DNA of 64,000 bases, from NCBI RefSeq assembly GCF_045037415.1, contig NZ_CP173438.1. The stretch is one strand, 5' to 3'. Below, piece after piece: positions 46,718 through 46,963 of this stretch. The translations under genes were made by a program, and so were the position numbers. This DNA is from Escherichia coli (GTDB taxonomy: Bacteria; Pseudomonadota; Gammaproteobacteria; Enterobacterales; Enterobacteriaceae). The notes below the pieces were generated by a model, which saw nothing but the letters and a program-made list of their open reading frames with translations, had not been told where the DNA came from and did not search any database. Position 1 is the stretch's first letter. Every line of letters begins with the position of its first letter.

Positions 46718-46733
46718 TTCTTGCGAGTTTCAG

Positions 46734-46761
46734 AAAAGGGGGCCTGAGTGGCCCCTTTTTT
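46734..46761 (+). terminator. rpsO intrinsic terminator
   Basis: AAAAGGGGGCC-TGAGT-GGCCCCTTTTTT. Confidence 0.8.
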
Positions 46762-46963
46762 CAAGCTGACGGCAGCAATTCACTGGAAACTAATGTATTG
46801 TTGCTATGAATGATCTTCCGTTGCAGAGGTTCGCGCGGCTAATGAGAGGCTTTACCCACATAGAGCTGGGTTAGGGTTGTCATTAGTCGCGAGGATGCGC
46901 AGAAGATCGGGTATTAACACCAGTACCGTAAGGTACTGTCTAAGAAAGAGAAAGGATATTACA

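Follow-up and report, generated by a model that had tools for sequence, protein, structure and literature searches.

The closest described system is the rpsO-pnp locus of Escherichia coli K-12 with its antisense small RNA gene sraG (b4449). In K-12, RNase III cleaves a long hairpin of the pnp leader on both arms, at +39 and +77 of the P2 start (PMC5029454). The same paper describes PNPase-dependent removal of the 5' fragment and RNase E attack after the cut, repression by PNPase of its own translation when RNase III is lacking, and CsrA acting on the processed leader, where two CsrA sites, one of them overlapping the Shine-Dalgarno sequence (SD), were described (Park 2015 via PMC5029454). SraG was defined as a 216-nt RNA whose transcription start site, mapped by circular RT-PCR with and without polyphosphatase, is 42 nt upstream of the 5' end annotated earlier, and the rpsO terminator T1 was described as bidirectional (Fontaine 2016, PMC5029454). 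SraG pairs near the pnp SD without overlapping it, and full-length SraG abolished the 30S toe-print at the UUG start codon whereas the 174-nt form SraG-S did not (PMC5029454). The 5' segment of SraG that has no counterpart in the Rfam family RF00082 was found to be essential for pnp repression (2016 study, PMC5029454). Inactivation of the SraG promoter raised pnp mRNA and PNPase about 1.3-fold, no other E. coli targets of SraG were found, RNase III cut SraG in vitro at mirror sites, and a Yersinia SraG with a target of its own was reported (PMC5029454).

The window analysed here, a stretch of 64,000 nt of E. coli DNA (contig NZ_CP173438.1 of assembly GCF_045037415.1), almost certainly contains the E. 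coli rpsO-pnp intergenic control region with its terminator, RNase III hairpin, UUG start and antisense SraG (Table 1). The locus is already known: it is textbook material, annotated, and dissected experimentally. Many complete E. coli chromosomes, among them those of Nissle 1917 and ATCC 11775, matched positions 46300-47100 with 100% identity, and at least 80% of this segment was found in one place in 5424 of 5426 complete E. coli genomes. One of the 5426 had no match to it, and one extra copy lay on a plasmid. Alignment to K-12 MG1655 (NC_000913.3) was gapless with 97.7% identity over 3.7 kb, and K-12 gene coordinates were transferred to the window through this alignment. Within 46300-47100 the two sequences differed only at 46925 and 47086, leaving 46930-47085 identical, and the 246-nt rpsO-pnp spacer had the single difference at 46925 (A instead of G). 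Coordinates, structures, conservation, covariation and strand come from our own analysis, and the cleavages, transcript ends and regulation discussed below from the literature on the identical sequence, so that function is transferred from K-12 across one differing spacer base.

The flanking genes had been named rpsO and pnp in the initial annotation, and both identities were borne out by RefSeq annotation and by the NCBIfam equivalogs TIGR00952 for S15 (136.9 bits, cut-off 63.65) and TIGR03591 for PNPase (1093.3 bits, cut-off 525.05). Upstream of rpsO, the autoregulatory S15 leader (Rfam RF00114) matched at 46390-46504 with 117.6 bits and was present in 20 of 20 other genera scanned. Further Rfam matches in the window were the ArcZ sRNA (7591-7698, minus strand), the greA leader (29202-29323), two tRNAs (35976-36059 and 39843-39916), the rimP leader (40008-40108) and naRNA4 (44807-44877). 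Divergence from K-12 was uneven across 45632-49099. The truB-rpsO spacer and rpsO showed no differences (0%), the rpsO-pnp spacer differed at 0.4% and pnp at 2.25% of positions, and the value was highest, 5.1%, over the 3' two-thirds of truB, where recombination may be the source.

Table 1. Features of the rpsO-pnp control region in window coordinates (minus-strand features are written 5' to 3')
Feature	Coordinates	Strand	Basis
rpsO coding sequence (ribosomal protein S15, 89 aa)	46448..46717	+	ORF, TIGR00952, K-12/RefSeq annotation
Bidirectional Rho-independent terminator	46734..46761	both	Sequence, folds, inverted repeats
pnp P2, probable -10 area and inferred start	46791..46809	+	Conserved TGTATTGT, indirect estimates
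Hairpin R, pnp leader RNase III processing site	46812..46908	+	Fold, covariation, K-12 literature
AGGAU (contains GGA) in the 3' arm of hairpin R, invariant	46892..46896	+	Alignment of 80 sequences
Hairpin 2 (7 bp, loop GUAA), between hairpin R and SD	46921..46938	+	Fold, inverted repeat, covariation
pnp Shine-Dalgarno AAGGA	46951..46955	+	Fixed in 80 sequences; reported downstream CsrA site overlaps
pnp coding sequence (PNPase, 711 aa), start TTG 46964-46966	46964..49099	+	Annotation, TIGR03591
SraG promoter (candidate)	46987..46956	-	Own reading and scan, 9/12 matches
SraG primary transcript, 216 nt	46949..46734	-	K-12 ncRNA b4449 (3311183-3311398) mapped without gaps
Part of SraG covered by Rfam RF00082 (approximately the old 174-nt SraG-S form)	46905..46734	-	Covariance model

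The terminator between the two genes, AAAAGGGGGCCTGAGTGGCCCCTTTTTT, acts as T1 for rpsO on the plus strand and as the SraG terminator on the minus strand. The hallmark of an intrinsic terminator, a GC-rich stem-loop with a U tract after it, was found on each strand: the GC stem (46738-46756) is flanked by A4 upstream and T6 downstream, the plus strand reading GGGGCC-TGAGT-GGCCCC and then TTTTTT, and the minus strand the same stem and then CTTTTCT, a shorter U tract (4 U). Folding gave -19.9 kcal/mol on the plus strand and -15.7 on the minus strand. The plus-strand reading is taken from sequence and folds; a consensus scan reported a terminator hairpin on the minus strand only, though the T run on the plus strand is longer. 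Counts of A/T runs at the terminator across species were confounded, as many species draw the runs into the stem. The terminator had been placed at 46734-46761 in the initial annotation, which proved exact, and the further leader of about 200 nt that it had described before pnp measured 202 nt from the end of the terminator to the pnp TTG.

On the opposite strand, an Rfam scan matched RF00082 between rpsO and pnp, antisense to both and ending in the rpsO terminator, with 164.3 bits (E 5.4e-30), more than three times the gathering score of 50, over the full length of the model (1-177 of 177). The sRNA named in the initial annotation was therefore located, and its ends, which had been left unplaced, can now be given from K-12 annotation and circular RT-PCR in K-12 as T 46949 for the 5' end and 46734, at the shared terminator, for the 3' end. 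The RF00082 model ends near 46905, at the old 5' end, and lacks the 42-44 nt that reach to 46949; in window coordinates the 5' end annotated earlier is at about 46907. The 216-nt SraG folded at -67.0 kcal/mol (z -4.6).

We read the SraG promoter as a -35 element TTTACG (46987..46982), which falls within pnp codons 7-8, followed after 18 nt by a -10 element TGTAAT/TAATAT (46963..46956) that separates the SD of pnp from its TTG. A consensus promoter scan, which requires A at -10 position 2, gave no promoter on the minus strand; it missed this one because the -10, TGTAAT, has G at that position. Our reading agrees with the K-12 experiments, in which the -10 mutation that abolishes SraG lies close to the SD without overlapping it (PMC5029454). 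By identity to K-12, the window would carry SraG's own promoter and primary 5' end at these positions, and SraG is probably transcribed in this strain as it is in K-12.

To survey these features we used 80 Enterobacterales loci from different species, fetched with an S15 query, of which 79 contained both genes; some of the counts out of 80 take in the window sequence. The rpsO-pnp spacer ranged from 239 to 366 nt among the 79 species. An E. coli-type SraG promoter (TTTACG-18-TGTAAT/AATAAT, 9/12 matches) was detected in 22 of the 80 loci, some of which may be chance resemblances in AT-rich sequence. It was present in Escherichia, Citrobacter, Salmonella, Affinibrenneria, Rahnella, Proteus, Photorhabdus and a few others, and degraded in Klebsiella, Kosakonia, Pantoea, Serratia and Tatumella. 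Scores of 72-177 bits with the Rfam SraG model were nevertheless obtained in 19 of 20 diverse genera. As a caution to annotators, a match of this kind in species other than E. coli shows conservation of the pnp leader and terminator and is no evidence that an antisense transcript is made.

This distribution bears on whether SraG belongs to the ancestral control of pnp at all, or is instead an addition confined to some lineages or a by-product of AT-rich sequence between SD and start codon, with many of the 'SraG' calls that databases list beyond Escherichia, Salmonella and Citrobacter being the reverse complement of a conserved leader. The restriction of the promoter to 22 loci and its decay in five genera, set beside the Rfam match in 19 of 20 genera, point in this direction, as do the selection of both leader hairpins on the pnp strand (below) and the finding that SraG removal shifts PNPase only 1.3-fold with no other E. 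coli targets found (PMC5029454). However, the E. coli transcript is real, requires its promoter and prevents 30S from binding in vitro, a Yersinia SraG has a reported target (PMC5029454), and the same promoter recurs in genera as distant as Photorhabdus, Proteus and Rahnella. We consider a lineage-restricted or by-product status of SraG possible but somewhat doubtful; it concerns the importance and spread of SraG and not the identity of the locus, which we continue to read as the rpsO-pnp control region with an antisense SraG.

Downstream of the terminator, the conserved TGTATTGT at 46794-46801 is likely the -10 region of P2, for which TAATGT (46791-46796) and TATTGT (46796-46801) are candidate hexamers. 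We infer a P2 start somewhere within about 46803-46809. The 234-nt native template of PMC5029454, which ends at nt 79 of the pnp ORF, gives +1 at 46809, and the RNase III sites at +39 and +77 combined with a 2-nt staggered cut in the hairpin geometry give about 46805-46806, the two estimates being 3-4 nt apart. Within the P2 -10 area, 46789-46795 (ACTAATG) is a perfect 7-nt complement of 46881-46887 (CATTAGT) and an upstream copy of the core of the hairpin R 5' arm. This copy occurs only in read-through rpsO-pnp RNA, its conservation in other genera is not strict, and it is a possible competitor for the hairpin's 3' arm.

Folding of the spacer, which the initial annotation had proposed as a check, returned a stable long hairpin (hairpin R) of 97 nt, with a long imperfect stem of 37 bp including 5 G·U pairs and a loop at 46859-46866. 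Its stability was -46.1 kcal/mol (z -5.77), with none of 200 shuffles as stable, and the whole rpsO-pnp spacer folded at -98.1 kcal/mol (z -6.35). On the pnp-sense strand, hairpin R places more than two helical turns of stem between P2 and the SD. The extended dyad symmetry noticed earlier at 46860-46940 was real, but the range was wrong: the main dyad is hairpin R itself (46812-46908), and 46860-46940 takes in only its 3' arm plus the separate 7-bp hairpin 2. The presence in this leader of an RNase III hairpin for pnp autoregulation, as stated in the initial annotation, was supported by a conserved, covarying hairpin, its function being that described in PMC5029454. The hairpin R segment of the window is identical to K-12, and RNase III would be expected to cleave it here as it does there, with predicted cuts at about 46845-46848 and 46880-46886.

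To assess on which strand these structures are maintained, folds and base pairs were compared across species. The plus-strand (pnp-sense) fold of the spacer was more stable than the minus-strand (SraG-sense) fold in all 80 sequences, window counted, with means of -107.6 and -79.4 kcal/mol, and the hairpin means were -45.5 and -29.5 kcal/mol respectively. A hairpin of 34-47 bp ending about 50-60 nt before the TTG was found in about 76 of 80, and its central arms TTCGCGCGGCTAATGAGAG and TGTCATTAGTCGCGAGGATG, the SD and the TTG were invariant or nearly so. A plain MAFFT alignment of the 80 leaders with RNAalifold yielded no more than the invariant central helix, as it misaligned hairpin 2 and the variable apical and basal regions. 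The final alignment was made with a covariance model built from close relatives, using plus-strand matches only. The model matched the plus strand of 79 sources at 33-146 bits, of which 75 were kept for alignment, and mirror matches on the minus strand reached 41.5 bits at most.

In this structural alignment 95.2% of cells were paired, and compensatory changes were seen in 27 of 43 pairs across both hairpins, including 7 of 7 pairs of hairpin 2. The covariation score was 0.352 compared to 0.142 in shuffles (0 of 500 as high), and sliding the partners gave no more than 0.068. Fitting the alignment to the model favours the structure, but the margins are large and the invariant wobbles are independent of how the sequences were aligned. 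A G·U pair can form only on the strand that is read; on the complement it turns into an A·C mismatch. Cells with G·U outnumbered those with A·C by 360 to 19 in hairpin R and 75 to 5 in hairpin 2, and individual wobbles were conserved (46831·46894 as U·G in 70 of 75 sequences, 46838·46887 as G·U in 73 of 75). The excess of G·U over A·C therefore indicates that both leader hairpins are maintained on the pnp mRNA strand, the SraG hairpin being a weaker mirror image. The converse, that the dyad exists mainly to structure SraG and the pnp leader just carries its complement, could draw on the mirror hairpin that SraG alone forms (-33.4 kcal/mol, z -4.6) and on the cleavage of SraG by RNase III in vitro at mirror sites (PMC5029454). 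However, selection on the minus strand would give the opposite wobble bias and is at odds with a plus-strand hairpin that is the more stable in 80 of 80 sequences, and we consider this converse very improbable compared to maintenance on the pnp strand.

Several lineages had insertions in or beside the leader. Erwiniaceae (Pantoea, Erwinia, Tatumella) carried about 60 extra nt between the rpsO terminator and the RNase III hairpin, at spacer positions of about 60-160, and the hairpin began near spacer position 160 instead of 95. Insertions of 60-120 nt were present in Dickeya oryzae, Sodalis, Serratia sp. DD3, Pseudocitrobacter and Hafnia; in Dickeya oryzae the model match was stretched to 201 nt, and the leader of Serratia sp. 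DD3 had no model match.

Hairpin 2 folded at -10.9 kcal/mol (z -4.4), and its z-score was below -1.5 in 65 of 80 sequences, the structure being kept despite divergent sequence. All seven of its pairs covary, and the literature covered here assigns it no role. The one spacer difference from K-12 falls in this hairpin, where A at 46925 changes a G·U pair to A-U, and in the corresponding SraG stem it changes a C·A mismatch to a U-A pair. E. albertii has G at this position, like K-12. Initiation of pairing by a kissing loop at hairpin 2 was rejected, as a 4-nt loop would be too small.

On the 3' arm of hairpin R, GAGGATG was invariant or nearly so among the 80 sequences. The GGA within it (46893-46895) and the GGA of the SD (46953-46955) are 60 nt apart, a spacing that would fit the 10-63 nt expected of CsrA-repressed leaders, and the AGGAU at 46892-46896 may be one of the two reported CsrA sites. 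AAGGA or AGGA was fixed in 80 of 80 sequences, 8 nt before the TTG, and the pnp start codon was TTG in 79 of 79 species. The start at TTG 46964 given in the initial annotation is confirmed by K-12 coordinate mapping and by the annotation of a RefSeq genome with 100% identity. In the window no stop interrupts the frame between 46814 and 46964, the ORF listing extends to a TTG at 46877, and older database entries gave PNPase as a 734-aa form, the length that a start at the in-frame ATG 46895, 23 codons upstream of the TTG, would produce. That upstream ATG start has practically no chance of being correct and was excluded: current K-12 and RefSeq annotation place the pnp start at TTG, the 30S toe-print in K-12 is at UUG (PMC5029454), the fixed AAGGA precedes the TTG in all species, the ATG at -23, which falls within the RNase III hairpin, is confined to E. 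coli and E. albertii, an in-frame stop occurs at most 23 codons upstream of the TTG in 64 of 80 species, and the PNPase profile match begins at residue 8-10 of the 711-aa form.

Transferred to this locus, the K-12 mechanism would run as follows. Transcripts of rpsO would end at the terminator, with some reading through into pnp, and P2 would also feed pnp. Both kinds of pnp mRNA would carry hairpin R and be cut by RNase III on both arms. PNPase would then remove the short 5' fragment still base-paired to the message, exposing the leader to CsrA at the GGA motifs (one over the SD) and to RNase E, and would thereby limit its own synthesis. Translation of pnp would start at the weak UUG. A minus-strand promoter straddling the pnp start region would fire at 46949 to produce the 216-nt SraG, which would end at the same terminator read in the opposite direction. 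The first 42 nt of SraG would pair with the pnp leader right up to the SD and block 30S, and this pairing would modestly lower pnp mRNA and protein.

Compared to K-12, the locus has the same gene order, terminator, hairpin, SD, TTG and SraG promoter sequence, and the spacers differ only at 46925. Small RNAs at or antisense to the pnp region were also described in Listeria (RliD) and Enterococcus (ref41, an antisense RNA at rpsO/pnpA), for which PMC5029454 reports no sequence similarity to SraG. The value of the present analysis is mainly a correct annotation of a classic case of layered post-transcriptional control of a major exoribonuclease, the layers being RNase III, PNPase itself, CsrA and an antisense RNA, to which it adds the strand-asymmetry test, the UUG start in 79 of 79 species sampled and the covarying hairpin 2. 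Structured 5' UTRs through which cleavage sets the decay of a ribonuclease's own message are also found in the rnc operon leader, which is cut by RNase III, and in the rne 5' UTR, which is sensed by RNase E. The pnp leader differs from both in that decay is set off by RNase III but the enzyme under control is PNPase, and in that an antisense RNA and CsrA add further layers.
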